Source: Dimargaris cristalligena (taxonomy: Eukaryota). From it: 62,022 nt of DNA. The notes under the pieces are model-generated. The model did not search any database. It was not told the origin of the DNA and worked only from the letters and a program-made list of their open reading frames with translations. Positions 23,777 to 62,022 of this stretch are shown piece by piece. The position numbers were made by a program, and so were the translations under genes. The stretch spans positions 1-62,022 of the forward strand of contig ML002240.1 of NCBI GenBank assembly GCA_003614675.1. Direction: 5' to 3'. Every line of letters starts with the position of its first letter. Positions within the stretch are counted from its first letter, which is position 1.

Positions 23777-24713
23777 ATGAAGATCGAGAAGGCTTTCGGA
23801 CCTCTGTTAAGCAACTATGAGGTACTGGCGCTGCTGAAGGAGCAAGAGACGTACCAGAAAACCCAGTCGAAACTTGACCCCATCGCCACCAGCAACCTAC
23901 TCACCGTCCAGTTCGAGGTAAGTTCTAAAGCGCGCGCACCTAGGTCTAGGTTATGGAGTATAATACATATTTACGGTCGAGCGCCGAAGAGGGAAGTGAT
24001 GGTGGTTACCCCAAAGTTGATTAATCAGGCCCATAGGTCTCGAACGATCTTTACTAATGTTACTAATTTATCTTTGGTTGATCTGGTTGGCATTCCAATA
24101 ATGTCACTGATCAATTGCCAACTTTTACCATCAAAACCCGGCTTACCCAGACCCTCAAATTCCTCAATGAAAGCCCCGCTTCTGTACAAACGCCGGATGC
24201 TCTTCAACAGTATATGGAAGCCATGAAGGACTGGAAACTTACCAAGGCCGAGAAACTCCAGATTTTGAACCTGCGGCCCAAATCGGCCGTCGAGTTATTA
24301 ATTGTAAGTTCCGTGCCTTATAGCGGGGGATTCGACAATCTAATTACTAGACAGCCCACTCACGTCACTCGCCTGACTAAGTACTGTTGTATACGAATAG
24401 TAGATATATCCTAAACTACGGGGCTATTACCGTGCTCTAATTCGACAATATACTTTGCTTGCACTATGATTTACCACTGTACGCGTTGCCATCTACGTAT
24501 GTGCATGGTCTGGGCGCGTTAATTTTGATATATATATAGCTAATTGAAGAGTGTGAAGAACGATTTACCGTCGAACAGCTCGAGGATATCCTCGGTATCG
24601 TCGAGCAGACTCTACCCTACTACGGAGCCGAAGAAGACGCCGAGATGCAGGATCAAGAACAACCCGTAGAAGAAGAGACCACTGAGGAGCAGGTGGTAGT
24701 CGACGTGGTTTAG
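23777..24713 (+). CDS. RPC17: RNA polymerase III subunit Rpc17/RPC9 (CRCP); exons 23777-23917, 24151-24303, 24540-24713
   Basis: LLSNYEVL, NLLTVQFE, LTKAEKLQILNLRP, LIEECEERF; acidic tail. Confidence 0.92.
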
Positions 24714-25148: not shown

Positions 25149-25345
25149 ATCACGTGATTAACCAATATTCCGCTATCCCTCCTAAACCACCCATCCAATG
25201 AAACCTTCCCATTTCGGACGAGGGCGATAAAGATATTTCACATAAAAAAATCCAATGAAAAAAAAAACCACTCCTTTGAAAAAAAATAGTGGAGAGGGAG
25301 GGGGCGATATGGGCGCAGAAGCCAACGGCTTCCCTCTAGTATAAA
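25149..25345 (+). promoter_or_regulatory. Putative Pol II promoter of the snoRNA host gene
   Basis: Palindromic ATCACGTGAT (25149-25158), three CCAAT boxes (25162, 25195, 25252) and TATAAA (25340-25345) directly upstream of the intron array. Confidence 0.5.
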
Positions 25346-25612
25346 GCGGGTATCAATTAGCGCCGGTAATTGCTACCTATCATTCTTTCCATTTATTCAT
25401 TTATCCACTAACATATTATCTGGCCTAGTTCCTTGGAACATGGCCCAGTTAACTTGTTTGCGGTATCTTGGTTTCCTTTTATTATTTATTAGCGGGGTAT
25501 ACATGTGTGTGTTGCTCCTATGTATGTTTCGTCTTGAACCATTAGGGTCGATTATCAATTAAAGTAAGTCACGTCGCAGTTTAGTATCCCTTTGCTATAC
25601 GATGGTACTTTA

Positions 25613-25701
25613 CAGTATCAATGAGGACTGATGCCGCCCCAGGCAGATAACCGCCTATATAGGAGTGTTGAAATTTTGCATCCACAATCTGACTCATACT
25701 G
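25613..25701 (+). ncRNA. snR67: Box C/D snoRNA, snR67/SNORD31-type, copy 1 (type A)
   Basis: C box ATGAGGA 25621; guide TGCCGCCCCAG; D' CAGA; C' GTGTTGA; D box CTGA 25689; terminal stem CAGTAT/ATACTG. Confidence 0.88.
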
Positions 25702-25914
25702 GTTCCATCACAAGTGATTGTTTAATTCTGAGCAATTTGAAGGAAAGCGTCAAGAGCAATAACTAATCAACTAGCTGTTCAATTGTATCGCACATTTGGT
25801 ATTATTGCTTTACTCTGCAAATAGTAAACGTCTTTAGGTTGAACTTCTACTTGTAATATTATATAAAAGGTAAGCCCTTTTCCCAACTCCCACGCGATTA
25901 AGCGATGTCATTTG

Positions 25915-26005
25915 AAAGTATCAATGAGGACTGATGCCGCCCCAGGCAGACAAAAGCCTATATAGGAGTGTTGAAATTTTGCATCCATTATCTGATCCAT
26001 ACTTT
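25915..26005 (+). ncRNA. snR67: Box C/D snoRNA, snR67/SNORD31-type, copy 2 (type B)
   Basis: C box 25924; same guide, D' and C'; D box CTGA 25992; terminal stem AAAGTAT/ATACTTT. Confidence 0.88.
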
Positions 26006-26232
26006 ATTCATTGCGCTTGAACTATTAGTCAACTTGACTATATTTACACTCAAACATTTGGCCATTGACTAATCGATTCGTTATTCTGTTTTTATTTGTG
26101 GATTGTTACGGTCAGCGGGTTAGATTTTTAGGATGATTCTGATTGTATTACGATATTTGTTCTATTCGGGTTTAATTATTATGTAAGTCACTTCGCAGTT
26201 CAGTTCCGCCTTGTTATGCGATGGTGCTTTAA

Positions 26233-26319
26233 AGTATCAATGAGGACTGATGCCGCCCCAGGCAGATAACCGCCTATATAGGAGTGTTGAAATTTTGCAT
26301 CCACAATCTGACTCATACT
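26233..26319 (+). ncRNA. snR67: Box C/D snoRNA, snR67/SNORD31-type, copy 3 (type A)
   Basis: C box 26240; D box 26308; core identical to copy 1; terminal stem AGTAT/ATACT. Confidence 0.88.
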
Positions 26320-26518
26320 GGTTCCATCGCGAGTGATTGGTTAATTATGGACAATTTGAACGAAATCGTCATGGAGACTAACTAATCAACCGGGTATTAA
26401 CTTGTATCGTACATTGGTGTTCTTTGTGAATAGTAGATCCGATTAGGTTAGTACTCTACTTGTAACCTTATAAAAAGGTAAGCCTTTCCTCAATGTCCCT
26501 TAATTGAACGGTGCTGTT

Positions 26519-26613
26519 TGAGAGTATCAATGAGGACTGATGTCGCCCCAGGCAGATCGAAGCCTATTTAGGAGTGTTGAAATTTTGCATCCATTATCTG
26601 ATCCATACTCTCA
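26519..26613 (+). ncRNA. snR67: Box C/D snoRNA, snR67/SNORD31-type, copy 4 (type B)
   Basis: C box 26530; guide TGTCGCCCCAG (C-to-T change gives a G-U wobble); D box 26598; 9-bp terminal stem TGAGAGTAT/ATACTCTCA. Confidence 0.87.
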
Positions 26614-26813
26614 CCGGGAATAGTTGTAGAGTGCTCGTTTTGAGTATTTTATCCTTAAGATCCATTATTAACCAATATTCACCTAATGATATATTTATGA
26701 TCCATCAATGGTTAGTGTTACAGATTGTAAATACATCACCTCGATTGGTACTCAGCGCAGTGTACTTAATTGTAAGTATTTTTTTGCCAATACATTTATA
26801 ATGCACGGTTTTC

Positions 26814-26907
26814 AAAAATATCAATGATGATTTATGCCGCCCCAGGCAGAACGATGCCTACAATAGGAGTGTTGACATATTTGCATACCTTTCTGATCCT
26901 TATTTTT
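26814..26907 (+). ncRNA. snR67: Box C/D snoRNA, snR67/SNORD31-type, copy 5 (divergent type C)
   Basis: Canonical C box ATGATGA 26824; guide TGCCGCCCCAG plus D' CAGA; C' GTGTTGA; D box CTGA 26893; terminal stem AAAAATA/TATTTTT. Confidence 0.9.
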
Positions 26908-27422
26908 ATTACCCCAATTCTTTAATTCTGTGCTGTAAGACAGTTATTTTTACATCTGATTGTAAACTAATTCATTCAATGGGTTGTAATTCTAAATTGT
27001 TGCGATCAGGTTATTTAGGTTGAGGTGCAGCTAAGAGCTCTTGTATTATGCGCTAAACCTCGGTTACTTGTGCATTATAAATAAAATTTAATAGTTATTT
27101 TTCAAATGGTAAATTGGTGTTAGGCCAATGTTGGCCGATAAATTTGAGACCGTTTGATTTTCCCCCAAGTCATCGGTTAGGACTATAGATTGTATTGCTC
27201 ATACAATTGTAATTTATTAGCTAGCCACAACCCTTGCGTGACTTGGTACTTACGCGTATAGTGAAGTGATTCATTGTGGCCGTTAAATGTTATCTAAGTT
27301 TCGTGATAAGATTTTGCTAATAAACATTATTTTCCATTTAAAATATCACACCGCTTTATTGAATGTCACCCATATTTATTACTACTACAATAATGTGCTT
27401 GTTCCCCTGCCTATGTTGGTAT

Positions 27423-29420
27423 TTACAACTTGGCCTTTTGGGCAAGGTACTTCTTGATTTCGTTACGCCCAAACTGGCTCAAATGGACGTCGTCGGGCCC
27501 TAATCATGTGAATATAATAAATAAAAGCTGGTGGTGGTTAGTCGATGGGCTGGGGGAATGGTAGTATTAGTACGGAGAGAGAAATATAGAGTCAGAGAGA
27601 GGGAGAGAGGATTAACCTACCGTCCGCAATACGCAGGGTCCGCGCCCCGGCGTACATTTCGGCCAATATCAGATCCGCGCCGACCCCGGCGGCCCCGTGC
27701 ATCTGGATACAGTCGTCGATGACCTTAAGCACCAAATTGGGCACCCTGATTTTAGCAATGGCGATTTCGCGCTGGGCGCCTTTCGGTCCGACCCGGTCCA
27801 TTTTGCCCGCGGCGTGTAGGACCAGGAGGCGGGCCTGTTCGACATTCATGCGGCAAGTGGCGATTTGGTGCATCACAACGGCGTTTTCGGCAAGTTTGCG
27901 GCCAAAGGCGGTGCGGGAGGTGATTCGGGCTAGGGTGAGGTCCATGGCGCGCTCGGCGAGACCGATGGCCCGCATGCAGTGGTGCAGGCGACCTAAAGGT
28001 GGCATGGAGTGAGGGTGGGGGTATTTCCATTTCGTGATAGTATAATGGCCGGCATGGGATTCAAAATGCGTGTTAAGAATAGGTTAGTATATCCAACGGA
28101 AAATAAGGAGGGTTTAGAGGCCCAATATAGTGATATGTAAGTACCACGCGACTTCGGATGGTAAATTAATTAGCCCACTATAGCGGGCCCACACCGCTTA
28201 CCTGGTCCCAAACGACCCTGGAGAACCTCGAAACCCCGACCTTCCCCCAGGATAATATTATCGACGGGAACCCGCACATTTTCGAACGTAACTTCGCAGT
28301 GGCCGCTGGGGGCATCGTCGTAGCCGAACACTTCCAGGGGTCGGACCACCTTAACGCCGGGGGTTTTAGCGGGCACCAATACGACACTCTGCCGTTGGTA
28401 GGGATTGGGGTGGCTGGGGTTCGTTTGGCCCACCACGAAAAAAAACTGACAGCGGGGATCCCCGGCGCCCGTAATCCACCACTTGTGACCGTTGATAAGG
28501 TAGGTTGCCGTTTTTTCGTCGCGCACGATGGACGTCCCAATGTTCGTGGCGTCGGACGATGCGACATTGGGTTCGGTCATGGCGAAAGCGGAGCGAATCT
28601 CGCCCGCCAGCAACGGAGTGAGCCAGCGCTGCTTTTGGGCGTCCGAACCGTATTTGGCCAGGACTTCCATATTGCCGGTATCGGGGGCGGAGCAGTTGCA
28701 GGCTTCGGGGGCTAAACGGATCGAGCGGCCCATTTGTTCGGCCATCAAGGCGTATTCGAAATTGGTGAGACCGGCGCCGAGGGTGCCGTATTCTTCTTCA
28801 CCCAGGAAGAGATTCCATAGACCGAGGGTTTTGGCCTTGACCTTGAGTTGTTCAAGGACGGGAGGGACAATCTAGAGGCATGGATGGACCCCACCAATGA
28901 ACAAGAGGTTGGGTGAAATCAGAGTTATTATCAAGATGGAAGAAGGACTGGTGTGTATACATACAAATAGCTATGCTGGGCCTTGGAAACTATACTCGAT
29001 GGGTATTAATGGTAAGAGGAATCCGATAGTCCAGCTATCTAACTATATTAGTATATGGGCGTTATCGGCTAGGAAGACCAGTAGCTCGTACCTGGAAGCG
29101 GGCCTCGCCCTTGCCAATTTGCTGGTTGAAGGTGGCTTCGGCGGGAATACAGTCGTTCTAGAATGAAACATAAGGTGGATATGGTGGAAATAAGTGGCGA
29201 GGAAAACGTGAGGATGTATGAGCAGTGCACTGGCGTATGGTACTACTGGGTCCGTCAAAGACATGGCCTTCTTCGGAGGGGTATTCCTGAAGGGCCAGTT
29301 CGAGGCGGAGTGTTTTCCAGCTGGTATTTGGGTTAGGCGGGTGTGACTTACCTCGACAAACTCTTTGAGCACCTTCAGGATACGCTGGGCCTTGGGCGAG
29401 ATTCCGTAGTTCGAAGTCAT
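27423..29420 (-). CDS. Acyl-CoA dehydrogenase (ACAD10/11-type catalytic domain only), predicted peroxisomal; exons 29420-29352, 29157-29092, 28871-28202, 27992-27621, 27499-27423
   Basis: [80 protein letters not shown]; ends in -AKL (PTS1). Confidence 0.93.
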
Positions 29421-36600: not shown

Positions 36601-39097
36601 ATGCACCATTTATTCGGCGAGCCGTCCCTGCCCGAGGATACTGTATACTATCATATCTACCAAGTCCCCGAGGAGGCCCCTCCCGCCCCGACCGCTTCCA
36701 ATGCCCCCGCCGAAGCAGCCTTACCAGCCGCTGCCGAGGAATGGCTTACCCGCATTCAGGCGCTAATCGCACCTTGGGTGGACGATTACCTATGGCATCG
36801 CGAGGCATTGGCCCTACATTGCCCCACGCCCAATTCCACATCGAGCGGACTTAGGCCAGCGGTTGGTGCCTCGACAACCCCACCGCCGCTGCAGCAGCTC
36901 ACCCGGCCGCTGCTCCAAGGCGCCACGGCCTTTGGCGATTGTCTCGAGGACGAATGGTTTATCGTGTTTTTGCTCCAGCGGATAACGGAGACGTTTCCGA
37001 CTTTGGCCGCTACGGTTTACGATACCGACGGGCAGTTTCTGCTGATCGAGGCCGCTGAAGTGATTCCCTCGTGGATTACACCTGACAATAGTGTGAACCG
37101 GGTAAGTCGAATAGGGCACAAGATATTGGCAGCAATTCCCATCCGACCCTGGGTTGCAGTAATTACCGATACACTTAGCCCGTCTTGTTTATTCTGCCCC
37201 TTGTGTCTATCTAATTGCGGAAAATTAGTTATATTTCACCCCTAACTGTTTGTGCAACCTGCCATTAACGTTCAAATGTCATTTCTGCTATTCTTTACTT
37301 GATTTATCTATCCCGCTATACTATACGTTGTCCCACCAGGTATTTCTGTACCGAGGCAATCTTCACATCGTTCCCCCAGCCGTGACGGGCCAGTCATCAG
37401 TTCCGGAATCGGCGGTACTCTATGGGTCCCTCCGATCCCTCGCCGACTGTCCCGCTCGTTCGTTGGCCGATGCTCCCTTGCAACAACTGGCGTTGGCCCG
37501 CATAGTAAACTACCCCGCGACTATCCAAGAGACCAACCGGTTCCGGACCCGGTGTTATGTGCCCCACCGAGTGGCCCACCTGCTCCACCATAACCCCCAA
37601 CTGCTCGCTTCCGCTATTGAGGCCTTTTACCTCCGTCACCCGGCGGCGGTCTCGGCCTGTCGCGACATGCATCAGTTCTCTCCGGAGGACCGGTCCGGCG
37701 GTTGTGTCCTGACAACGGTGCGGTGGTCCCGTACCCTGTATGCCCAAACCCGGAGTCAGAGGTTCGTGGCTCCGCGGGTCTTTGACCGGGCGGTACCGGC
37801 CGAGTCTGCCACGGATGCCTCTCCTGGACCCCGACCCTCGGAAATCGAATTGGGTATGAAGATCGCCTGCGGATTCGAAATGCTCTGTAGCGGGTATGAT
37901 CTGGCGGACCCCCTGCTCCCGGATACTGTAGCCCAACAGGCGGAGGCCGTTCGGGCCGCGGAGTCGTGGGATCGGTACCGGGCCCGGCTCGAGCAGGCCG
38001 GGTATTTTGACGGGTACCGATCCGGGTCCGAGGGGTTCCGGGCCAAAACGGCGGCGGCCCGGCGGGAATTCCAATTGGCACATAAAATGGACGCGCGACC
38101 CATATTGACTGGTGGCGGGGGAGGCCCCGCGGCGGATCCCCTCGAACGTACTCACCGCGTCCTCCGGGATATCATCGAAATCCTCCAACGGCCGCTTGTC
38201 CCCACGGCAACACTGGCCCGGCATTTGATCGGGCAAGACGATAGCGACGACTGGATGTACATCCGGCCCGACTACCTCGAATCGATACTGCAAAAACAAC
38301 AGGCGAACCTGGACCAGTTGCATGCCGAAACTCCGGCCGACCCGACGGATCGACGGGCCACGGCGATACCGTCCGACTCGGAAATGCAAGAGGGGGTCGA
38401 TATGGCGGATATGATTGCGAAATTCCAGCAATTCATGGGGAAGGACGCTGGTATGGACGGGGCCGAATTTTGGAGTGAATCGTCGGACGGGGAAACTAAT
38501 GACGACAGTGACTCAGAAAATGATGATGAGGAGGAGGATAGAGATGCCGGGTCCGAGATTGGCGAAGAGGATTTCCGGTCGGCTACCACGACGACAAAGT
38601 CCCGGGCCCCGCCCTTGAAAACCGCCCCTCTATCCGCGGCACCCATTCAATTCGATCCTGAGGCTTTTCTCACGAGTCTGGAGTCGATCCTGGGTGTCCC
38701 CCTTGCCCAGGACCCGGTGCACCCAACTTCCGACGGGACTCAGGCGGGTAAACAGGTCCGTTTTGCCGAACCGGCGACCCAGAAAGGCGAAGCCGCTGAT
38801 GGGGAGGATACCTTGGAGGAAATCATGGAGGCCATGGACTATGAGCTGGGACAAACTAAAATTGGAGCGTCCTTTGAGCGAGTAGGCGTCGACGACCAGG
38901 GCAGCCGAAGCACCGCGGGCGCTAATGAGGGGCCCGTGGATATTGATTTGAACCTGGTGAAGAATATACTACAGTCATTCAAGGCCCAGGAGGGCCTGCC
39001 CGGCCCCATGGGGAATTTGCTAGGTGGAATGAATATATACTTACCTCCTCATCAGGATAGCGACGATGATGCTGAGGCTGATGCCGATGGTAAATAG
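36601..39097 (+). CDS. ECD: Ecdysoneless/SGT1-family protein; exons 36601-37101, 37340-39097
   Basis: YLWHRE, GATAFGDCLEDEWFIVFLL, DTDGQFLLIEAAEVIPSWITP, NRVFLYRGNLHI, ELGMKIACGFEML, DDSDDWM, PVDIDLNLVKNILQSFKAQEGLPGP. Confidence 0.92.
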
Positions 39098-50820: not shown

Positions 50821-51142
50821 ATGGCGTTTCTGTACATGGGTATCCTGGCCCTGGCCTTCGTTTCAGTTCTACTCAGCGGAGGACGGGGAATGAAATACGA
50901 TGTTCCTGAGTATGAGCTATGCGACAGCTCCTGCCCCATCGATGTAAGTCTAGTCACTCACCGTAGTTTTATCATAATTCGAACGGAGCTCACCCACCGA
51001 AGCGGTTGTTTTGAAAGGCATGGCTGGTAGATGGATCGGTTCATATATCATTTCACACACACTTAAGCCAGCCAGCTCTTGTTTCACCCCAAGTCTATTC
51101 ACCGCATCCGACTTAACTCGCCCCCACCATTATACGCACACC

Positions 51143-51180
<38 letters not shown>

Positions 51181-52102
51181 CATCAAACCCTATCGATATA
51201 TCCACCATACGGCAACTTCCCTACAGCTCCGTCTCTACTTTTCCAATCTATGGGAAACCAACAAAGCCGAAGGCATTTCGGAACTCCTATCCTATCAACT
51301 CGAACTAAGTGATTTCAAGTCCCTCCTCCGCCTAATGGAACGGGGGTTCGTTGATTGGGACGTTCCGTTTGCCAAACGCACGGTCCAAATCTACGAACTC
51401 TACGAAAGCGGCAACCGCCGGCTCTTCCCCCTCCTGGCCGTCACCCTGCATAAACGCCCGGATCTAAGTTTCCGGGTGTTCCGTAATTTTCACTTCCGGT
51501 GGCTAACGCAACGCGCAACGGCGGCATCGACATCAACGGAAACGACAACGACGGAGGCGGACCCGCTTAGCTCGTGGGTACACTACTCCCGGGTCCAAGC
51601 CGGCGCGGCCCTGTGGTACGCCGATGCAGACCGGTACTTGCCCGAAGCACCCCACTATCCGCCCTCCTTCGACCTGTACGACGCCATCGACGTGGTCTAT
51701 AAGCGACTCTACCGCAACGCGATTATCCTGCTGGCCCGCGAAAAGCGCGTTGATGAATTGGGCGTCTTTGTGGAGTTCGCCTACCTCCAGAACTTCCGGC
51801 GGCCCATTGAGCTCTACGCCTACTACTTTCTCATCGCCGCCCTCATCCAAGTTGACCAGCCGATACCATACCGATTCCCCCAGGATGCCCCAGAACAGGA
51901 CAAATCGCGGCTGATGAAATGTCTCGTTGATCTGAAGCGCTGGGAGAAGAACTGGCGCCATATCCTGCCGGTATTTGGTTCAGCCCAAATAGGCCAGTCG
52001 AAGACCCGCGATCGCATTCTAGACTGTTTTAATTATTATCTACCAGGCCAAAAAATCACCGTGATACCCAAGGGATTCTCGTACAGCATCCTCTATTTCT
52101 AA
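50821..52102 (+). CDS. Hypothetical secreted protein; exons 50821-50943, 51227-52102
   Basis: Signal-peptide-like MAFLYMGILALAFVSVLLSGGRG; GTAAGT donor and CTACAG acceptor join in phase 0 to a long, C-ending-codon-rich ORF; no recognised family. Confidence 0.7.
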
Positions 52103-52538
52103 ACTCCCCCCGCCCCCATTAATAAAAGTTGCACCTCATCTCCTAGTCTTTGTCATTAGTTGCCAAAAGCACTTTCGCTAATAAATCAATCAATTATATT
52201 TAGGGCAATTGCAGTTTTGAATAATGAGGTAAAATGTAAAAGAAATAACAGAGAAATGACTTAAATGTCAGCGGAGGGAGTCCATAATTATTGTTTTAAA
52301 AAAAAACACCACCTTGACATTGTCAGAAAAATTAGGCGAGAATACAGAAATACGTACCATGAGTAAGTATAGAAGAATGTAAATTGGATAGAATTAATAG
52401 CCGGGTGCGACTGCTTCCACCTCACGACACGTCGACTTGGATAATATATATGCGGGTGTATAATAATGGGTAGCGGTTGGGTTAATAATTGAGAACAGCA
52501 AGGCAAATCAGGTAGCCGGACCACTAAGTGGCCATTCA

Positions 52539-52572
52539 ACACACACACATATATATATATATGTGTGTGTGT
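52539..52572. repeat. Perfect 34-bp palindromic compound microsatellite (AC)5(AT)7(GT)5
   Basis: Read directly; lies between two convergent 3' ends. Confidence 0.85.
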
Positions 52573-52673
52573 GTGTATGGAATGTGCGGGCAGGTGTATG
52601 TATAAGTAAAAAGACCAATCATTAAACGAAATGGGGCCTGTATTTAAGCACGCTCGAAAAAGAGAGACTCGCC

Positions 52674-55600
52674 CTAGGATTTGACTTTCCAGTTGCTCAC
52701 GGCGTCCATCAGGTCGCCCAAACCGTCAGATGGAGGCAGGGCGGAATCGATGGAGGGGGCCTTCAAGGAAGCCGTGGTCGATGGCTCTGACTGCACCGCG
52801 GCCTGGTCTAATGGCTCGGTTGGGCTCAAGAGAGATTCAGTGCTAGACTTATCGGGAAGGGTGGTCTGGGTAGTAGCACTAAGGGGCGGATCCATGCTCA
52901 TGCTGCTGTCCGCCTCGCCTTCGCCTTCCTCCTCGATGGAGTCCTGCTGAGACTTATTGACTTCAGCATCGGGAATGGCTTCCGCCTCGTCTTCCACGTC
53001 GAAGATCCAGTGGTACTGGAGGATCAAATTCTTGACGATATTCTGATGGTGGCCAAGGTTGGTCATGGAGGTTCCGAAACTATGGGGGCCAGGTAGTGGC
53101 TTCAGTAAAGTGGGCCCGAAGACGATGGCGAGATTGGTGCTGTACATGTGGTTGACCTCTTCAAAGTCGGTAACCCGCTCTAGATGTTCAATGATGCGCT
53201 TAAGGAGAGTGTAACTGGACTTGGGCAAGGCGTGGATCAAATCCTTAATGGCCCATAACCGCTCGTTATAGTCGTCGACGGCAGCGGCATTGATAAAGCC
53301 CTCGTAGAGCTGGAATGTGAGCAGGGGTTCCGGAAGGTCGCGAAGGAATAGCTTCAACACACCAGCTACCACGTTGATGTCGTAGTACTCGTCGGCAGCC
53401 AAATCGATATCCCAGTGACCCTCGTTAAACAAATCCCTGAGCTTGTTGATACCAGCCACACTGCCAGGCACTCGGTAGATACCCACTTCCTCTAACCCAC
53501 GCGACTCGATCTCGCAGAGACAGCGCTCCACAAATGGAGGGATGCGACCATGGGGCATAAGGCTATGCAGGTCCACCCCGAAGGCCCTTGATTCGGCCGT
53601 CCGGGCCGGTCCGTTGCCCCCACCCAATTGTCCAGAAACTACCAGGTCGTCAATCTCCTCATCGGACTCTTGTTCAGGCCCCATGGATCCACCAGGGTTG
53701 GCTCTCTCCCGGCTTTGGCGGGCCTCCTTACGCTTGGCCTCTTGGACAAAGACGGTCAGTCGCCGAGCAGCGGCTTCCTTAGCCGCCTCGTGGACACATC
53801 TGATCCAGTCCAACATATCCTCCTTGCTGCTAGCCTGCATAAGGTACTGGCCCCCTTCTTCGGTGATAATGCGGAAGACGTGGTCGCGTTTTGTATAAGC
53901 GTGCTCGACATCGGTGGTGGAGTTGATTAAGTTAATCACCAAGGCCGCCTTAACAGAGGGCATGCGCCGAATACCTGCTGCGGCTCTAGCGCCCGAAGGA
54001 ACCGGGTGGGCTACACTCCGCATGAGACTTGACATTTTGAGGAGCTGCTCGCTCTTGGCCCTTCGGTGCTGGTGTTCCTTGAGTTGCTTCTTGAGCTGCC
54101 GGTCCCGCTCCTGTTCACGGCGCTTCTGGCTTAATGATAATTCCCGGATTTCCCGCTCTAGTTTCTCGCGCACTTTGCCCTCCCGGCGGCAGCGCTCCTG
54201 TTCGTCAACCACCAGGCGGTGGAATGGTCGCACCAGCTTGAGATTCATGGGACCACCGTGGCTATTAGAGTGGTAGGTATGTATGTGGGTGTTCTCATTG
54301 GCCGCGACCTCGGCCGCTCGCCGGAATGGAAGTGCCGGCAGGTCGCCATATACAGTTAGGAAGGGGAAATTAGGGGTGGCCGGTGGGAGTTGGCCGCGGG
54401 GCTCCTGACATAGCTTGTCGCAAATGGAAATAAGGGCTTGAATGCGCCGCCGTTTCTCAAAATACACCAGCTGTTCGTTATCCACAATATGATCAGTCAC
54501 GTCGTAGCACAGCTCGATCATGTTCTGCAACAGCCAGCCGAGGCCAGGTACCAAACGGGCATTTCCGGCAGCTAAGCCCCGGGCTGTGGATAAATCGGCC
54601 ATGGATGGTCGGGCCTCCGTGGGGCTGGGGGTGCTACTGAAGCCTCCCCCGGATTGGCCACTGCCGTGGAGGGCCTCCAGGAATGAGCCATCGTAACGGA
54701 GTAGAGCCTCGAGGGTGTCGGTCGCCATATTAGTCAAGTGAGCCACTTCGGACCAGGCCTTGCTGAAAGCCCGGCTTTCGGGACTGACCAGGGCACTGGC
54801 AATGGCCGCCTCGACAAAAGACGGGACGTGCAAACGATCAACAGCCGGGCCCAGGGCTCGAGCGGGAATGGCGATATTGCTGCTCAAGTTGGCATTGAGG
54901 GAGTCACGAACAAAATGGACCGCGATCCGGTAGGGATCGGTACGGCAGATCCGCAGCACTTCCAACCAGGTTAACAGGTACTGTACCCGAGTTTCGAGGT
55001 CAATATTGGGGTCAGACAGATTGCTAATGACCCACTGACGGAGATTGCGGTGGAAAAAGAGCAGGTGTTGGATGGCACTGGGGAGGATCTTGGTGAGGAA
55101 GGACTCCCCGGTCTGGACAGTCCCGACCGCCGTGGGTGTGATATCTGGTGCGATGTCCAGCGCCGGGCGGACACGCTTAATGGTTTCCAACACAGTGAGA
55201 ATGTCACCAACGACGGTTTCCTCATCGGACAGTACCAGGGTTCGGCGGGAGGGGTACCAAGCTAAGCCGTCAATCGTCTGGGCCTCAAGCAAGCTGAACG
55301 TAAGCAGCCAGTCCTGGGGCCGGGTACGGGAGAACAGCAAGGTGGCCTCGAAATTAAGGCCATTAAGCAGTGCCAAAGGATCAAATCGCTGCAAATCGAT
55401 ACTGGGCATCTTGGAGGGAGCAACGGTATCAAAACGGGTGCCACAGAGGGCGGGTGCGGAGGATTTACCAGGCGTAGTAGGGGTTTGAAGGGGAGAGAGT
55501 ACCAGAGCAGGGATCAGGCAGCTACGAAGTAGGCGGTTACGAATGCTGGTCGGGCTGGTAGTCTCCAGGGGACCGGGCAATTGAGTGTCTTGGGCAACCG

Positions 55601-58600
55601 CCTGCAAGAAATCAATCATAGCATCGCGAATGCTAAGGGAATCCAGGAAGTCCGCCTGGAAGTAGCGAATCCAGTAGTCGCAGAGACTGAGGACACGGCG
55701 CTTGACGTCACCCACCACCACTTCTTCGTTCCGGGAGAGGGTGGTGGCTCGGGTAATCGCATTCGTCGAAGTGGGATTGGAGGACCCTCCGTCACCACAT
55801 TCACGGGCCAGGGCGACCAGGCGTTTAGCGTACACTGGGGCGCCATCGTAGTACATGCGTAGGAGGTTCAGGACCTCCAGTCCGTTGGCCAGGCTCCGGT
55901 AGGTAGCGAAAAAGGAGGCCTGGTACTGGGGGTAGTCAAGTTGAAGTTCACCTCGCAGAGCAATGGTGGCGTCCCGATTAGACAAGGTGGATAGTTGGTT
56001 TTGATATTGCCGAACACCATGGATCAGTACGTCAACAAGGCGCTCGACGGAGCCGCCATGGACCGATACCATTAGTTCCTCGCGACATGATGTGGTACCA
56101 TCCCGCTTCCGAACGGTCTTATTCTTAAAGTGCTGGATCTTCAGTAGAAGGTCGGAACTCGTGATGGTCAATATAACCCCAGCGGGGAGATCGGCAGCCT
56201 GGAAGCTACTTTTGGAGACCGATCGGCCCATAGGCGTCGATTGCGACCGGGGTGCTGGGGACGGGGAATCGGGCCGAATCACAGAGTCGGTGGTACTTTC
56301 GGCGGACGTGCCCAACTCAGACGAACCCGTATTGCCGGATGAGCTGGGGAAGGACATGGAACGCTTATTCTTTAGGCGGGGAACCGATGCAGAGGGACGA
56401 AGACTGGGCGATTGAGTCTCGCTCGCAGGATAATTCTCCTTTTGAGGTGATAATTTGATTAGAGACGCTGGCAAGGGGCCTGAGATGGCTATTTTACCGT
56501 CCGCCGAAGTGTTCGACCGATTCTTTACCATGCGAGGCCCTTGGGTGGGCGACCGTCTATCCGACCGACCATTACCCGCCCCGTCCGAGTGAGCATTAGA
56601 CACACTAATGGGACCCACACGGGGTGAGCTCGTTAGAGGGGACGAATTGGATCCCACCCCGCAACTGCTATGGTTCGCACCCCCCGCTGACCCGGCACCG
56701 CTATTACCGAGGAGGCCGAAGGAGGATTCCACAGTCGAGATAATGGACGACAATCCGAATCCGGTTAGGGGGCGGATAGCCGCAGCCGCGGCGGCTGCAG
56801 CAGCTGAGCCCACCGAGGACTCCCGCGACATGGCCATCCCATTGGAGTTGGAAGTGCCGTAGTGAAACATGGAGTTGGAGTTGACGCTGGACAAGCGGGG
56901 ACGGGCCATGCCATCGCCGCTGGGCCGGAAGGGAATCATATCCAGACGACCCTGAATGGCCAAGAAATGGGTGAGACGGGTCGATACAATCACTTCGGGA
57001 CAGGCCAGGGGAGAGACCACCGACTCCAGGTTGGCAATTTCCTGTCCGTGGTGAGCCAGGTACTGCTCCGAGGCGGAGGGCTCACACAACAGGGACAGAT
57101 GGAACAGGTGCTTGGGATCATACTCATTCACCAGGGAATTGTGAGCATTGTCACCCCTATATTGATCGAGGGACTTGAAGTAATTTTGGTACGCCAGGTG
57201 AGGCTGAACGGAGCTGATATCTACCCCAGGAGGAAGCTGCGCGTGTAGGCAAGCGAGAGCCGGGTTGGCGGGCGCAGTAGTTGGGCTTTTTCCACCGATG
57301 GACTGTGCCAAGGCCCCCACCACAAGAGCGGGTTTCATAGACGAAAGGGAAATGGAGGAACCACCGGAGTTGCGCGGATTTATACTGGCCCGACTTGAGC
57401 TACGGGACAGACCTGTGGAAGGGGGGGTGTACACCGGCTGCTGAACCGGGGAGTCGCGGATAGCCCGCCACATAATTTCGTACATGGTCCAGAATTTGCG
57501 TAGATTAACGAATTGGGCGTCCTGGTCGCGTACCGTGGTAAGACGGCGGACCTCTTCGATGGTAAGGGTGGTTGGCTCGACATGCTCGATGTGCTCGAGG
57601 GCTTGGCATATGGTCCCGCAGTAGGGGATAGGGGGTAAGGTGGCGGGATTGAATTGCTTCGAGGATGCGCTACCTCTGGGTTCCAAGGTGATGGGGGGCC
57701 TTAAGACGAGAAGCTGGGGTCGTGGTGAAGACAGCAAGGTAGCCGAGTACACCAGGTCATGCTCCAAGAGTAACGGGGCCCATTGGTCTCGGACCGTCTG
57801 TAAAAGAGGCAAGGGAACTTCTTTCCAGGCTTCGAACAGCCGGATGAGCGCTGGGGAGGTTAGAGCCACGGCAACAGCGGCCCAGGTGACGGCATCGTTC
57901 ATGCGGCGGGCAGCCTCGCCTACCTTGATCCAGTGACCGATCAGGGCACTGCGTTTGGAGTGACGAGTCAAGGGCAAGTCAGTGAGCAAATGACAATGAA
58001 TCAATCGAACTATAAAATGAGGGTTCAGAATAGTGAAATGTAAAGCGCGGCTGTGTAGGGAGGGGTCGTTGGCATTGTGATCACTAGCGGGAATAGAGTC
58101 GAGGACAGAACCCCCGTCAGTAACTGAGGCAAGCGCACCGGCGACCCGGGTAAGTTCAGGGGTCAAGAAACTGCGAATGGCCAGCGGATCGTACTGGTAA
58201 TAAAGAGACCAGTGGTAAAGATAGAGCTGCTGAGCCACAACCTCCGGATTTAATCGCAAAAAGAGAGTAGGGTGGAGCCCGTCCCCGTTTAATTGACTTT
58301 CCAGGGTAGGTTCAGCTGGTGCCGAATTTATGGCCGCAGCCATACCCCCCTGGCTCCTTTTATGCAATAGCCGTGGGGAGCGTAACCGACTCGGGCTAGT
58401 AGGCGATCTAGGCGAGGCAGGCGACGAAGGCTCTGGACAATCGACAAAACGAACCTGCTGAGACTTGGGAGCCCCCTTGGAGGCGGGCGGAGCTACCGGA
58501 GTCTCCTCCACCTTAGCGGCACGTTTTACTTCGGGCGGGGGCTTGAGCGCCAGGCTGATGTCTTCTTTAATCTGGGTGGCGAGGGTCATGTTGATGGGCA

Positions 58601-60650
58601 TGATTAATTTGGCACTCAATTTGATCAAGGTATCGGCCAAATCGCTAGAGATGTCGGAAATGGCCCATTTGCACCACCGGGCCAGAAGCTGGCTGAAGTT
58701 GTGCATAAATTGGGTACCCGATTCCTCGGTAGAGGAAATTAGTTCGGCGTATCGCTCGAGTTCCTTCACAAATTCGGCGGGGGTCATAAAACAGGGGTAG
58801 GTGCATAGGAAAGCCATGAGGTAGGTATCAAAGTCTACTCCGGCATGAGCGGCAGAGTCGGGAGTGAAAAAGAGCAGTTCGTGCACCAAAGCGGTTTTGG
58901 TTCCCGCCCGGATGACATAGTCCTTGCTGGACTTGCTCACTTCCTCGGGGGTAAAGATAACCAACTCCGGGTGGCGCTCGGTACTCCAGTAAAGACGACG
59001 ACGTTGATTCCGACCGGTGGAGTGCGATGGCCGGCTGTCGATACTGGCGGCTGGGCGGACCATTGACCCATAGGTGGACGAAACGGTACTTCGCTGGGAA
59101 GAGGCGGGGCGGACATGCTGCTGGCGTAGTCGTCGGCCGAATGCAGCTTTGGAAGCCATAAACCGGGCCACCCACACGGCCTTGTCATTGGCGGAGTTGG
59201 CCACAAACAAGCGGGTACTCGACTCCTTACCCTTACTGACGAACATTTGGAAGGCCTGGACGTTGCCAGAGCCAGCGACGGACGAGAAATCGGTGGACAT
59301 GGTGGACGAGGTGGTCATGACCGAGGTAGACGATATGTTGGTCTGAGAGTAAATGGTGCTGCGACCGTGGGAAGACGGATTGAAGGACGAAGTGGGCACG
59401 GCCAGTCGGGTCGAGGCAGCCTCCACAACATCCACGATAGTAAGTGGGTAGGCCGCGTGTTGCTTCCATTTGGTAAAGTAGCCCGGAGAGCGGCCCTGGG
59501 CATCGATACTGCGCATGGAACAATTGTCCGTGTCCTTCCCGCGAGTGCTGATACTCCGAGCCAGTCGGAAGGCATTGGAAACGGCACCCACCACCCCCTT
59601 GTGCTGTTTGACCCACTTGCGTTTACAAACGACCACCACATCATCGAAGATCAACAGACAAACGTAGCGCTTGAATTTGAATTTGGCCAAATCAACTTCA
59701 GTGAATAGACCGCCGAACATGTACCGGGTGCTGAGGGGGGGGACGATGGTACCACCTTGGACGTCGGATTCGAAAATAAAGGGCACGGCGGAAATGTCAA
59801 ACTCGGCTTCGAGCAGAGGTAACCCCTGGAAAGCAGCGGCCGAATCATCACCGTCAAAGCTTTCCATGTCGGGAGCAGGTAACCGGGGAGAGGCGGTTGA
59901 GAGCGGCGAACCCTCGAAGGGAAATTTCTTGCGCAACTCACCTTCGGATGGTGGTTTATAGAAGTAGAGTTTGGAACCCTTCAACATGACCCGATACACC
60001 TTCCAGCCCCGGGCCAGTAAGGCGGTTGAAACGGGGTTGAGGGGGTTCAGGTCGGTCTTGCGATTAAGATAGCCCTCTTTCATAATATTAGTGCTGCTGG
60101 CGGTGAGACCTAGTCCAGGGGTGGGTGGCGACGGTGAAGGGGAGGGCTCGTAGTCCGGGACCGGCAGCACGGCAGGTGACCGGTGCGGATAGAATGACAT
60201 GAGCGAACTTTTCCGCTGCTCGTAAACGGGAGAGATAAGATCACTGACATGGGCCATATTTGATGGGAACCCGTAAACGGAGGAGACGCGGGTGGAAATG
60301 CTTGGGGGAATACGCTGGTCAATGGATATGGACCGATCGGCCGGCCGGCGGTCACCGATGGCTAGGGGCGAGGCCATATGGGACAGACCAGCGGCGCCGA
60401 TTAAGCGGGCGTCCTTGGCGGGGGGGCGCCCATTCTCAGATCCATGGGACCCCCCCTGGTTAATATGAGACCGGGTATTACCTAAATAGCCGCTGGGATG
60501 GGCATAAGTAGTGGTTGGCCGACGACGGGGCATACTGTGGGAGCCAGGGCCCCGGGAACGTTGGGATAGAATAGCAGAGGTAGAGTCCTGTGACCGGTGG
60601 TCGTTATGTGGGTCACGGGCCGTTTTGGCTGGCGACACCCGTTCACTCAT
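52674..60650 (-). CDS. Bem2-like multidomain Rho GTPase-activating protein (PH, two RasGEF-N/RasGEF-like modules, C-terminal RhoGAP), 2658 aa
   Basis: RhoGAP: FGVDL, IPPFVERCLCEIESRGLEEVGIYRVPGS with Arg finger, KLFLRDLPEPL, NHMYSTNLAIVFGPTL. REM-like: IRAGTKTALVHEL...FLCTY and HGGSVERLVDVL...FFATY. PH motifs also present; uninterrupted ORF. Confidence 0.9.
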   Translation of the reverse strand: MSERVSPAKTARDPHNDHRSQDSTSAILSQRSRGPGSHSMPRRRPTTTYAHPSGYLGNTRSHINQGGSHGSENGRPPAKDARLIGAAGLSHMASPLAIGDRRPADRSISIDQRIPPSISTRVSSVYGFPSNMAHVSDLISPVYEQRKSSLMSFYPHRSPAVLPVPDYEPSPSPSPPTPGLGLTASSTNIMKEGYLNRKTDLNPLNPVSTALLARGWKVYRVMLKGSKLYFYKPPSEGELRKKFPFEGSPLSTASPRLPAPDMESFDGDDSAAAFQGLPLLEAEFDISAVPFIFESDVQGGTIVPPLSTRYMFGGLFTEVDLAKFKFKRYVCLLIFDDVVVVCKRKWVKQHKGVVGAVSNAFRLARSISTRGKDTDNCSMRSIDAQGRSPGYFTKWKQHAAYPLTIVDVVEAASTRLAVPTSSFNPSSHGRSTIYSQTNISSTSVMTTSSTMSTDFSSVAGSGNVQAFQMFVSKGKESSTRLFVANSANDKAVWVARFMASKAAFGRRLRQQHVRPASSQRSTVSSTYGSMVRPAASIDSRPSHSTGRNQRRRLYWSTERHPELVIFTPEEVSKSSKDYVIRAGTKTALVHELLFFTPDSAAHAGVDFDTYLMAFLCTYPCFMTPAEFVKELERYAELISSTEESGTQFMHNFSQLLARWCKWAISDISSDLADTLIKLSAKLIMPINMTLATQIKEDISLALKPPPEVKRAAKVEETPVAPPASKGAPKSQQVRFVDCPEPSSPASPRSPTSPSRLRSPRLLHKRSQGGMAAAINSAPAEPTLESQLNGDGLHPTLFLRLNPEVVAQQLYLYHWSLYYQYDPLAIRSFLTPELTRVAGALASVTDGGSVLDSIPASDHNANDPSLHSRALHFTILNPHFIVRLIHCHLLTDLPLTRHSKRSALIGHWIKVGEAARRMNDAVTWAAVAVALTSPALIRLFEAWKEVPLPLLQTVRDQWAPLLLEHDLVYSATLLSSPRPQLLVLRPPITLEPRGSASSKQFNPATLPPIPYCGTICQALEHIEHVEPTTLTIEEVRRLTTVRDQDAQFVNLRKFWTMYEIMWRAIRDSPVQQPVYTPPSTGLSRSSSRASINPRNSGGSSISLSSMKPALVVGALAQSIGGKSPTTAPANPALACLHAQLPPGVDISSVQPHLAYQNYFKSLDQYRGDNAHNSLVNEYDPKHLFHLSLLCEPSASEQYLAHHGQEIANLESVVSPLACPEVIVSTRLTHFLAIQGRLDMIPFRPSGDGMARPRLSSVNSNSMFHYGTSNSNGMAMSRESSVGSAAAAAAAAAIRPLTGFGLSSIISTVESSFGLLGNSGAGSAGGANHSSCGVGSNSSPLTSSPRVGPISVSNAHSDGAGNGRSDRRSPTQGPRMVKNRSNTSADGKIAISGPLPASLIKLSPQKENYPASETQSPSLRPSASVPRLKNKRSMSFPSSSGNTGSSELGTSAESTTDSVIRPDSPSPAPRSQSTPMGRSVSKSSFQAADLPAGVILTITSSDLLLKIQHFKNKTVRKRDGTTSCREELMVSVHGGSVERLVDVLIHGVRQYQNQLSTLSNRDATIALRGELQLDYPQYQASFFATYRSLANGLEVLNLLRMYYDGAPVYAKRLVALARECGDGGSSNPTSTNAITRATTLSRNEEVVVGDVKRRVLSLCDYWIRYFQADFLDSLSIRDAMIDFLQAVAQDTQLPGPLETTSPTSIRNRLLRSCLIPALVLSPLQTPTTPGKSSAPALCGTRFDTVAPSKMPSIDLQRFDPLALLNGLNFEATLLFSRTRPQDWLLTFSLLEAQTIDGLAWYPSRRTLVLSDEETVVGDILTVLETIKRVRPALDIAPDITPTAVGTVQTGESFLTKILPSAIQHLLFFHRNLRQWVISNLSDPNIDLETRVQYLLTWLEVLRICRTDPYRIAVHFVRDSLNANLSSNIAIPARALGPAVDRLHVPSFVEAAIASALVSPESRAFSKAWSEVAHLTNMATDTLEALLRYDGSFLEALHGSGQSGGGFSSTPSPTEARPSMADLSTARGLAAGNARLVPGLGWLLQNMIELCYDVTDHIVDNEQLVYFEKRRRIQALISICDKLCQEPRGQLPPATPNFPFLTVYGDLPALPFRRAAEVAANENTHIHTYHSNSHGGPMNLKLVRPFHRLVVDEQERCRREGKVREKLEREIRELSLSQKRREQERDRQLKKQLKEHQHRRAKSEQLLKMSSLMRSVAHPVPSGARAAAGIRRMPSVKAALVINLINSTTDVEHAYTKRDHVFRIITEEGGQYLMQASSKEDMLDWIRCVHEAAKEAAARRLTVFVQEAKRKEARQSRERANPGGSMGPEQESDEEIDDLVVSGQLGGGNGPARTAESRAFGVDLHSLMPHGRIPPFVERCLCEIESRGLEEVGIYRVPGSVAGINKLRDLFNEGHWDIDLAADEYYDINVVAGVLKLFLRDLPEPLLTFQLYEGFINAAAVDDYNERLWAIKDLIHALPKSSYTLLKRIIEHLERVTDFEEVNHMYSTNLAIVFGPTLLKPLPGPHSFGTSMTNLGHHQNIVKNLILQYHWIFDVEDEAEAIPDAEVNKSQQDSIEEEGEGEADSSMSMDPPLSATTQTTLPDKSSTESLLSPTEPLDQAAVQSEPSTTASLKAPSIDSALPPSDGLGDLMDAVSNWKVKS

Positions 60651-62022
60651 CGCCGGAAACCAAATAGATAATCAAATGGTGATGGGCAGCGCTTCGGAGC
60701 CGGGAGGAAGAAATGTCGAAGATCTATAGGCAAATCGTCAGATGGAATCAGAAATAACCCAGTCGGCGAATGACTAGAATATATATGACGAGGCCGGGTC
60801 GGGTCAGGGGATACCTAGATGTAGAGGAATGCATCAGAGATCAAAGAAAGAGGGGGGTAATATATATCCAAAAAGAAGGCAATTGCAATGGGAGAGGGGA
60901 TTAGATGAGGTTATTGAAGGAAATGACGGGCACATGACTAGACACGGCCATGATATGCCTTGAAAAGGACATAGATCATATTTTTTTTCATATAAGAGAA
61001 AATGGGGCAGGAAGCAACTCGCTCCACAACCGCTGATCACTCAATGAGAGTTGATCGAGCTACGCATTGATCCAGCCGGAAAACCGGTGATTCTATAGGG
61101 GGAAAACGCTCAGGCCATTCGGGCTGATGACATCGCTATTCCGAAAAACAGTCGATGAAAACCAGCCACAGCTAAAACTTGAAACTGATGGACAGGGTGA
61201 CGTGAAGATTGACCAACTGGGAGTGGAGCATTCAATCACCCCAAATCAGGCTAACTAGAGCAGCTGTATGCAGACCTGGACCACTATTTTGACCCACGGC
61301 AGTGGTTCTAGACAGGGCCCAGGCGTAGGAACGGTGGTTAACCCAGCTACAAGAATCGGACGGCGGTGGAGCAGGGCGTAGATAATCCTGAGTGAGGGGG
61401 GCAATACTTACCGGTCGGGCGGTGATAAACGGCGGAAATAGAGGGGGAATAGAGGGCGAGCAGGGAGCCTAGATGAGCGTTTACTACGGACTGATGGAGA
61501 GAGATGGGCGGGTACCTATACAGCGAGGAACTCGAATGAGGAGGGGAATCGACTTGCGATGCTGAGTGGGCTACTGAGAGACTAGTGGAAAAGAGCGTTA
61601 CCGATGATGGGGTAGATGAGGGACGGGGGCTGTGCCATACAGCGGCTGGTCAATAGTACCCGGCGGTGGACTTATTCGGAATTCTAGGGACGGAACGGCA
61701 CAGGCTAGGTAGGAAGGGGGAACTTAGAAGGAAACGAGAGCGAAAGAGCAGGAAGTATATAGATAGAAGAGGAGGAAAGAGCGATACGTGAGAAGGAGGG
61801 GTATAGGTAATAAACACGATATATATAAAAACACACAAGCTAATCTGCACAGACTTAGCAAACACAAACAGCGGAAAAGGAGGGGAATAGACGGAGCGCA
61901 TACAACAACGAAGACCTGAAGATGAGGTGTGAATAGAAACGGAAGAGAAGAGAATAGTTTTCCCCCTTGCCCACCGACTCTATCTATCTATCGACTATCC
62001 ACTTGGCTGTTGTGTCCTCTAG

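Follow-up and report, generated by a model that had tools for sequence, protein, structure and literature searches.

A stand-alone, RNA polymerase II-type non-coding gene that hosts small nucleolar RNAs (snoRNAs) very probably occupies positions ~25375-27105 on the + strand of a 62,022-nt stretch (contig ML002240.1, assembly GCA_003614675.1; hereafter the window) of Dimargaris cristalligena, an early-diverging fungus of the order Dimargaritales in the Kickxellomycota. The predicted gene consists of six short exons and five introns, and each intron would carry one box C/D snoRNA of ~88 nt that is predicted to guide methylation of the P-loop of the large-subunit ribosomal RNA (rRNA). The observations made in this analysis concern the repeats, the snoRNA boxes, covariation in the terminal stem, sequence constraint, the spacing of the splice signals, the guide register and the absence of coding capacity.

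A repeat search revealed five direct repeats, which started at positions 25612, 25915, 26231, 26521 and 26815 and were spaced by 303, 316, 290 and 294 nt. The pattern TCAATGAKGA was matched at 25618, 25921, 26237, 26527 and 26821, so that the C boxes begin at 25621, 25924, 26240, 26530 and 26824. These are exactly the C-box coordinates listed in a preliminary description of the window; the ~90-nt unit that it had reported to recur five times was also found, with a body of ~88 nt. A 13-mer that spans the guide core and the internal box (CGCCCCAGGCAGA) was present five times in the window with no mismatches, always inside the array, and no extra match was obtained in the window when up to two mismatches were allowed. 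At the two-mismatch setting the shuffle control was unremarkable, with a mean of 1.77 matches and five matches reached in 6 of 100 shuffles. Both strands of the window were then searched with a scanner for a C box, a D box and a terminal stem, which recovered copies 1 to 4 and nothing else; copy 5 escaped because its spacer is 4 nt. The mean for Markov-1 random sequences was 0.33 hits per strand. The five-copy array is real and well beyond chance. A metagenome scan with a two-part pattern (guide plus D' and C' boxes) gave a sole match, which was rejected as a chance occurrence; it lacks a C box and resembles normal coding sequence.

The D box was CTGA in all five copies. Copy 5 had the C box ATGATGA, and copies 1 to 4 had ATGAGGA, which departs from RUGAUGA at one position. 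The D' box (CAGA) and the C' box (GTGTTGA) were invariant and both off consensus, and the small CCT/AGG hairpin between them had no variation by which its pairing could be tested. The terminal stem comprised 5-7 bp. In the five-row alignment it was paired in 92% of cells, compared to 22-58% when the partner strand was slid by 1-3 columns, and two of its pairs changed on both sides (AU, CG and GC at columns 4/93; GC to AU at columns 6/91). It was also present in the minimum-energy fold of three of the four copies that were folded. This box C/D layout, with its terminal-stem covariation, supported the proposed identity of the copies as snoRNAs. The guide that had been described as shared, TGCCGCCCCAG, was exact in four copies; copy 4 instead read TGTCGCCCCAG, a C-to-T change with which pairing would be kept, because the U would form a wobble pair with G.

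The repeat units were aligned from each donor to the next, and the body of 88-90 nt was compared with the remainder of the unit. Mean pairwise column identity was 0.71-0.92 in the snoRNA and 0.09-0.52 in the flanks, and differences were depleted in the snoRNA body in all ten pairwise comparisons (one-sided Fisher p-values from 6.5e-13 to 1.8e-5). Units 1 and 3 differed at 1 of 88 snoRNA positions and at 55 of the 219 remaining positions; the corresponding values were 6/88 and 104/233 for units 2 and 4, and 22/90 and 120/240 for units 1 and 5. Within the body, variation lay in the linker between D' and C' and in the nucleotides that immediately flank box D, and the guide did not vary save for the C-to-T change in copy 4. 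The five bodies are being kept intact, with or without gene conversion. Units 1 and 3 were sisters, with 87% identity over 233 nt that included the intron flanks, as were units 2 and 4, which shared snoRNA states and GTAAGCC donors, while copy 5 was the most divergent, with 18-22 differences from each other copy. The array would have grown by tandem duplication of whole exon-intron units. In the simplest history copy 5 would be the oldest, a duplication would have given two unit types, and a two-unit block would then have been duplicated with a period of ~606-619 nt.

At the Rfam gathering thresholds there were no hits in the window. When the threshold was relaxed, the best match of each of the five copies belonged to clan CL00053, as either snR67 or SNORD31 (Table 1), and in all copies shown the cmscan alignments placed CGCCCCAG and the D' box opposite the guide and D' box of the family in the same register. 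The guide variant of copy 4, TGTCGCCCCAGG, is the snR67 consensus core. The proposed link to the snR67 and SNORD31 covariance models was therefore upheld with regard to the clan and the guide register, and fell short with regard to the gathering scores. Two further Rfam matches from the whole window at E ≤ 0.5, one mir-3149-like (52532-52580) and one SCARNA7-like (51011-51245), were weak and unrelated and were treated as noise.

The fifth nucleotide upstream of CAGA in copy 1 is the C at 25639, which faces the second G of CUGGGGCGG (CUGGGG). The E. coli 23S rRNA reads GACUGGGGCGGU, and the second G is position 2251. In a duplex search in which E. coli 23S rRNA stood in for D. cristalligena 25S rRNA, the best duplex of the guide was with the P-loop, with 10 contiguous pairs and -23.2 kcal/mol, compared to -18.2 kcal/mol for the next site. 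Yeast snR67 guides the methylation of G2619, the equivalent of E. coli Gm2251, as stated in PMC11121408, and U31 (Gm4166), snR67 and plant U31/snoR35 are tabulated together under CL00053 in PMC3511168. In agreement with the guide register, the 23S reading and these sources, the target predicted in the preliminary description by the D'+5 rule, the second P-loop G (E. coli G2251, yeast G2619), is correct if CAGA serves as the D' box and if the fungus retains the universal P-loop.

The arrangement of the splice signals pointed to an intronic location of all five copies. The GTAAG strings that open the predicted introns (Table 1) start 44-49 nt before the snoRNA 5' ends and 52-57 nt before the C boxes. 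Between 25300 and 27200 there are exactly five CTAAT strings, one following each copy, and the presumed branch A lies 66-77 nt past the snoRNA 3' end. Every copy sits singly between a GTAAG and a CTAAT, which corresponds to one snoRNA per predicted intron. GTAAG is found 48 times on the + strand of the window (0.00077 per nt) and CTAAT at 0.0009 per nt; in the array GTAAG was unvarying in all five units, though the sequence after it had diverged to ~45-48% identity. The spacing between donor and snoRNA agrees with that in Neurospora crassa, in which most intronic C/D snoRNAs are described as lying at a distance of 41-60 nt from the 5' splice site (PMC2780460). Once aligned, the branch motif was ACTAAT in four of the five units; unit 4 had CCAAT at that place and CCTAAT 10 nt further on. 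The donor and branch layout proposed earlier was consequently retained for the GTAAG before each C box and the CTAAT after each copy, and not for the aligned ACTAAT in unit 4.

For comparison, five introns were read by eye in two protein genes, four of them in an acyl-CoA dehydrogenase gene. Their donors were GTAAGT (twice), GTAAGC, GTACGA and GTAGGT, each contained CTAAT or CTAAC, and their length was roughly 120-240 nt; the types of signal were thus those of the array. In the array the first AG more than 10 nt past the branch was taken as the preferred acceptor, that is, the last two nucleotides of each intron in Table 1. In the resulting model the predicted introns measure 238-261 nt and the internal exons 44-67 nt. 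The TATA-like strings TATATAAAAG (25860-25869) and TTATAAAAAG (26468-26477) close predicted exons 2 and 4, directly before the donors.

It is improbable, in view of these signals, that the snoRNAs are real products of a cluster that is independent of splicing, whether polycistronic, with release by endo- and exonucleases, or multi-promoter, with units 2 and 4 transcribed from their own TATA-like elements. Polycistronic non-intronic snoRNA clusters are described for budding yeast, plants and trypanosomatids (PMC2780460), and TATATAAAAG and TTATAAAAAG precede copies 2 and 4 by ~45-55 nt. However, units 1, 3 and 5 have no TATA-like string, and the two strings that are present can be read simply as the exon side (AAAG/GTAAG) of a good donor. 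Furthermore, GTAAG and CTAAT, which are scarce in the window (0.0008-0.0009 per nt), flank all five copies at the distances given above, in surroundings that have diverged to ~50%.

The element that precedes box D (the D-side element) did not align with the yeast snR67 consensus guide for U2724, and the 4 nt adjoining box D varied among the copies. As reported in a survey of fungal snoRNAs, the U2724 target of the snR67 D box is found only in Saccharomycotina (PMC5824354), and so the U2724 guide is not defining outside that group. The conserved TTTGCAT core of the element is displaced by 1 nt relative to box D in copy 5, and this speaks against a fixed target for methylation. No convincing target was obtained for it on E. 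coli 23S rRNA, which is the wrong organism and on which the best duplex was 8 bp at 24-31 (-15.0 kcal/mol). The element was treated as an orphan, or as no methylation guide at all. In copy 1 there was also a 5-bp complementarity, GATGC/GCATC, between the start of the guide region (25633-25637) and the conserved element before box D (25678-25682). This helix was found in copies 1 to 4, was changed on both sides in copy 5 (TATGC/GCATA) and was present in the minimum-energy fold of the four copies folded; given that there is a single compensatory event, the complementarity may be due to chance. We regard it as quite unlikely that the amplification is a Dimargaritales-specific adaptive dosage device for methylation of a hard-to-reach P-loop and that, in addition, the TTTGCAT element is no second methylation guide and instead pairs with the 5' end of the P-loop guide, in a helix that would mask or chaperone the guide and so control its availability, or else is an accessory rRNA-pairing segment.

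The longest open reading frame (ORF) with an ATG start encoded 40 amino acids (25440-25562, in exon 1), whichever of the 48 combinations of acceptors was used and also when the RNA was left unspliced. The length of the spliced RNA was ~450-550 nt across the 48 models. The exons had been described as poor in ORFs and the host as non-coding, and consistent with this description no ORF longer than 40 amino acids was present in any spliced model. Together with the donor and branch spacing, the lack of an ORF supports, at the sequence level, the reading of the locus as a gene of the GAS5/UHG type with one snoRNA per intron. That the host instead encodes a 40-amino acid hydrophobic peptide in exon 1, with the snoRNAs in introns of the 3' untranslated region, is highly improbable. 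The ORF begins with ATG and lies downstream of the putative TATA box, but it had no Pfam match at E values up to 0.1. In addition, its stop is located 1 nt before the first donor and is followed by five exon junctions, a layout that is classic for substrates of nonsense-mediated decay, as in UHG and GAS5. The N. crassa hosts are likewise described as holding only short ORFs, of 159-267 bp (PMC2780460). Least credible of all is that the tandem repeat is in decay, with units that are pseudogenes or with one active copy only: non-canonical C, D' and C' boxes and Rfam scores below threshold would fit such decay, but the C box, D box, guide, D'-C' hairpin and terminal stem are kept in all five copies, the stem through compensatory changes. 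Differences are excluded from the snoRNA bodies in all ten pairs, and a decaying array would not leave precisely its functional parts untouched.

Several points weigh against the non-coding host gene with five intronic snoRNAs that we favour. The C box of four of the copies (AUGAGGA), the D' box (CAGA) and the C' box (GUGUUGA) all depart from the consensus, and the best Rfam scores, 18.5-23.1 bits, compare with gathering thresholds of 55 for snR67 (RF01177) and 40 for SNORD31 (RF00089). The folding energy was no better than that of shuffled sequence (z from +0.03 to -1.11); weak folding z-scores are usual for box C/D RNAs, and the values were regarded as uninformative. The conservation evidence comes from paralogues alone, since no orthologous locus was obtained, and gene conversion could contribute to the conservation of the bodies; as a sign of such conversion, copies 1 and 3 are identical even where the other copies vary. 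The acceptors are ambiguous: in unit 1 an AG follows the branch A at a distance of 8 nt, and the aligned ACTAAT is missing from unit 4. The strings TATATAAAAG and TTATAAAAAG could be internal promoters instead, or AT-rich exon ends. Finally, guide pairing beyond the universal CUGGGGCGG core, including that of the two outermost guide nucleotides, is assumed.

Transcription, splicing, assembly of small nucleolar ribonucleoproteins (snoRNPs) and methylation are what we infer for the host gene, by steps drawn from established snoRNA biology. The primary transcript would be spliced, and the excised introns would be debranched, after which exonucleases would trim them as far as the terminal stem and the C/D kink-turn, which core snoRNP proteins would protect. 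The 12-nt antisense element upstream of D' would then pair with the P-loop of the large-subunit rRNA, and fibrillarin would 2'-O-methylate its second G. The spliced exon RNA, with its short ORF that ends in exon 1, would probably be a by-product, and the presence of five copies would just raise the snoRNA dose.

The host gene was solitary, with an Rpb4-family gene (+) on one side and a convergent acyl-CoA dehydrogenase gene (-) on the other (Table 1). The Rpb4-family gene is spread over at least two reading frames, i.e. it has an intron. The GC content was 42% in the array stretch and ~50% elsewhere in the window. Upstream of the host gene, a palindromic ATCACGTGAT (E-box-like CACGTG) was observed at 25150-25160, and at 25240-25290 there were long runs of A together with an imperfect tandem repeat of 21 nt; the palindrome and the repeat region may be promoter elements. 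An SGT1-domain ORF (37229-39097) was 99% identical to a protein that is assigned to D. cristalligena at NCBI, and this protein mapped back onto two exons in the window with 100% and 99.3% identity. Close to the end of the window there was an uninterrupted ORF of 2665 amino acids (52674-60671, -).

Table 1. Predicted and observed features of the snoRNA host gene and neighbouring genes, with positions in the window.
Feature	Position	Strand	Remarks
TATAAAG, putative host-gene TATA box	25340-25346	+	read in sequence; function putative
Predicted exon 1	25375-25563	+	5' end a guess taken from the preliminary description; holds the sole ATG ORF of 40 amino acids
Predicted intron 1	25564-25824	+	donor GTAAGT; ACTAAT, branch A 25766; probable acceptor 25823-25824; other AG 25773-25774
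Predicted exon 2	25825-25869	+	45 nt, or 95 nt with acceptor at 25774
Predicted intron 2	25870-26115	+	donor GTAAGC; GACTAAT, branch A 26072; next AG 26114-26115
Predicted exon 3	26116-26182	+	
Predicted intron 3	26183-26433	+	donor GTAAGT; AACTAAT, branch A 26385; AG 26432-26433; paralogue of intron 1
Predicted exon 4	26434-26477	+	
Predicted intron 4	26478-26715	+	donor GTAAGC; CCTAAT, branch A 26686; AG 26714-26715
Predicted exon 5	26716-26771	+	
Predicted intron 5	26772-27009	+	donor GTAAGT; AACTAAT, branch A 26970; AG 27008-27009
Predicted last exon	27010-27105	+	AATAAA 27080-27085; 3' end putative
snoRNA copy 1	25613-25700	+	boxes, repeat, scanner; snR67 21.3 bits (gathering 55)
snoRNA copy 2 (C box 25924)	25916-26003	+	repeat, Rfam, scanner; snR67 18.5 bits (gathering 55)
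snoRNA copy 3 (C box 26240)	26232-26319	+	1/88 positions differ from copy 1; snR67 21.3 bits (gathering 55)
snoRNA copy 4 (C box 26530)	26522-26609	+	guide variant; top snR67 score, 23.1 bits (gathering 55)
snoRNA copy 5 (C box 26824)	26816-26904	+	most divergent; canonical ATGATGA C box, compensated terminal stem; SNORD31 22.5 bits (gathering 40)
Terminal stem AGTAT/ATACT, copy 1	25614-25618 with 25696-25700	+	
C box ATGAGGA, copy 1	25621-25627	+	
Antisense element (guide, 12 nt) TGCCGCCCCAGG, copy 1	25632-25643	+	
D' box CAGA, copy 1	25644-25647	+	
Small hairpin CCT/AGG, copy 1	between D' and C'	+	
C' box GTGTTGA, copy 1	25665-25671	+	
D-side element, 17 nt, copy 1	25672-25688	+	
D box CTGA, copy 1	25689-25692	+	
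Rpb4-family gene (RNA polymerase subunit Rpb4/Rpc9-like)	23777-24330	+	PF03874, E = 3e-10; immediately upstream of host gene
Acyl-CoA dehydrogenase gene, multi-exon, four introns	27424-29420	-	converges on host gene 3' end
SGT1-domain ORF	37229-39097		

The locus would represent a clean, unannotated UHG-like non-coding snoRNA host gene in Kickxellomycota. It would add one more early-diverging lineage of fungi to those with the snR67/U31 P-loop guide, and it suggests that tandem duplication of intron-snoRNA units, which is well described in vertebrates, operates in fungi too. It should also be useful for annotation and for lineage-specific snoRNA models.

Like snR67 of yeast, SNORD31 (U31) of humans and U31/snoR35 of plants, the array copies have a D' antisense element that contains CGCCCCA and is predicted to select the P-loop G (the equivalent of yeast Gm2619, human Gm4166 and E. 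coli Gm2251). Human U31 is also intronic, in the non-coding host UHG/SNHG1, and yeast snR67 is not known to be intronic. Unlike snR67, the D. cristalligena snoRNA is present in an array of five copies, in which the D-box antisense element for yeast U2724 is not recognisable. Imprinted mammalian arrays (SNORD115/116) have tens of copies and, unlike the Dimargaris array, consist of orphan guides without an rRNA target.

The snR67 family with this D' target is reported in Dikarya lineages and Chytridiomycota, and individual fungal species are said often to carry multiple snoRNA paralogues (PMC5824354). The main text of that survey has no occurrence of Kickxellomycotina or Zoopagomycota, and its supplements may list species. 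A full-text literature search returned no paper that joined snoRNA with "Dimargaris" or "Kickxellomycotina".

In N. crassa, UHG-like non-coding hosts (clusters I-V) are described that carry one snoRNA per intron and short ORFs and for which splicing was proven by reverse transcription PCR (RT-PCR) (PMC2780460, Liu et al. 2009). The Dimargaris gene resembles these clusters in that it is a predicted non-coding host in a fungus, has short ORFs, and carries its snoRNAs singly in predicted introns between canonical splice signals, at a similar distance from the 5' splice site. The N. crassa clusters, as presented there, carry different snoRNAs, and most snoRNA genes of that fungus are singletons, whereas the Dimargaris array has the same guide in five introns; furthermore, the splicing that RT-PCR demonstrated in N. 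crassa is a prediction from sequence in the Dimargaris host. Non-coding hosts are also known from a different kingdom: in the account of the Drosophila Uhg long non-coding RNA hosts, 42% of expressed host-gene C/D snoRNAs are in non-coding hosts, and multiple copies of the same snoRNA gene are named with letter suffixes (PMC11014333).

The preliminary description had considered the single-guide array to be set apart from other host genes. This claim was overstated, since vertebrate snoRNAs are described as commonly duplicating in tandem within a gene ("cis"), so that paralogues come to lie in adjacent introns, and such duplication is named as a main route by which snoRNAs expanded there; tandemly repeated snoRNAs are described in imprinted regions of eutherian mammals (PMC2653536). 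As in the vertebrate cis-duplicates of that source, exon-intron-snoRNA units appear to have been duplicated in tandem, with purifying selection on guides and boxes while the flanks diverged. Unlike the vertebrate and imprinted examples, all of which are from animals, the Dimargaris array would be a constitutive rRNA guide that has been amplified five-fold, and its host is an early-diverging fungus. The novelty therefore lies in the lineage and in finding a five-fold single-guide layout in a fungus, the principle being already known; beside these systems the locus is an ordinary, if well-formed, representative of its gene type, which is known, and the understanding of snoRNA biology is unchanged by it.

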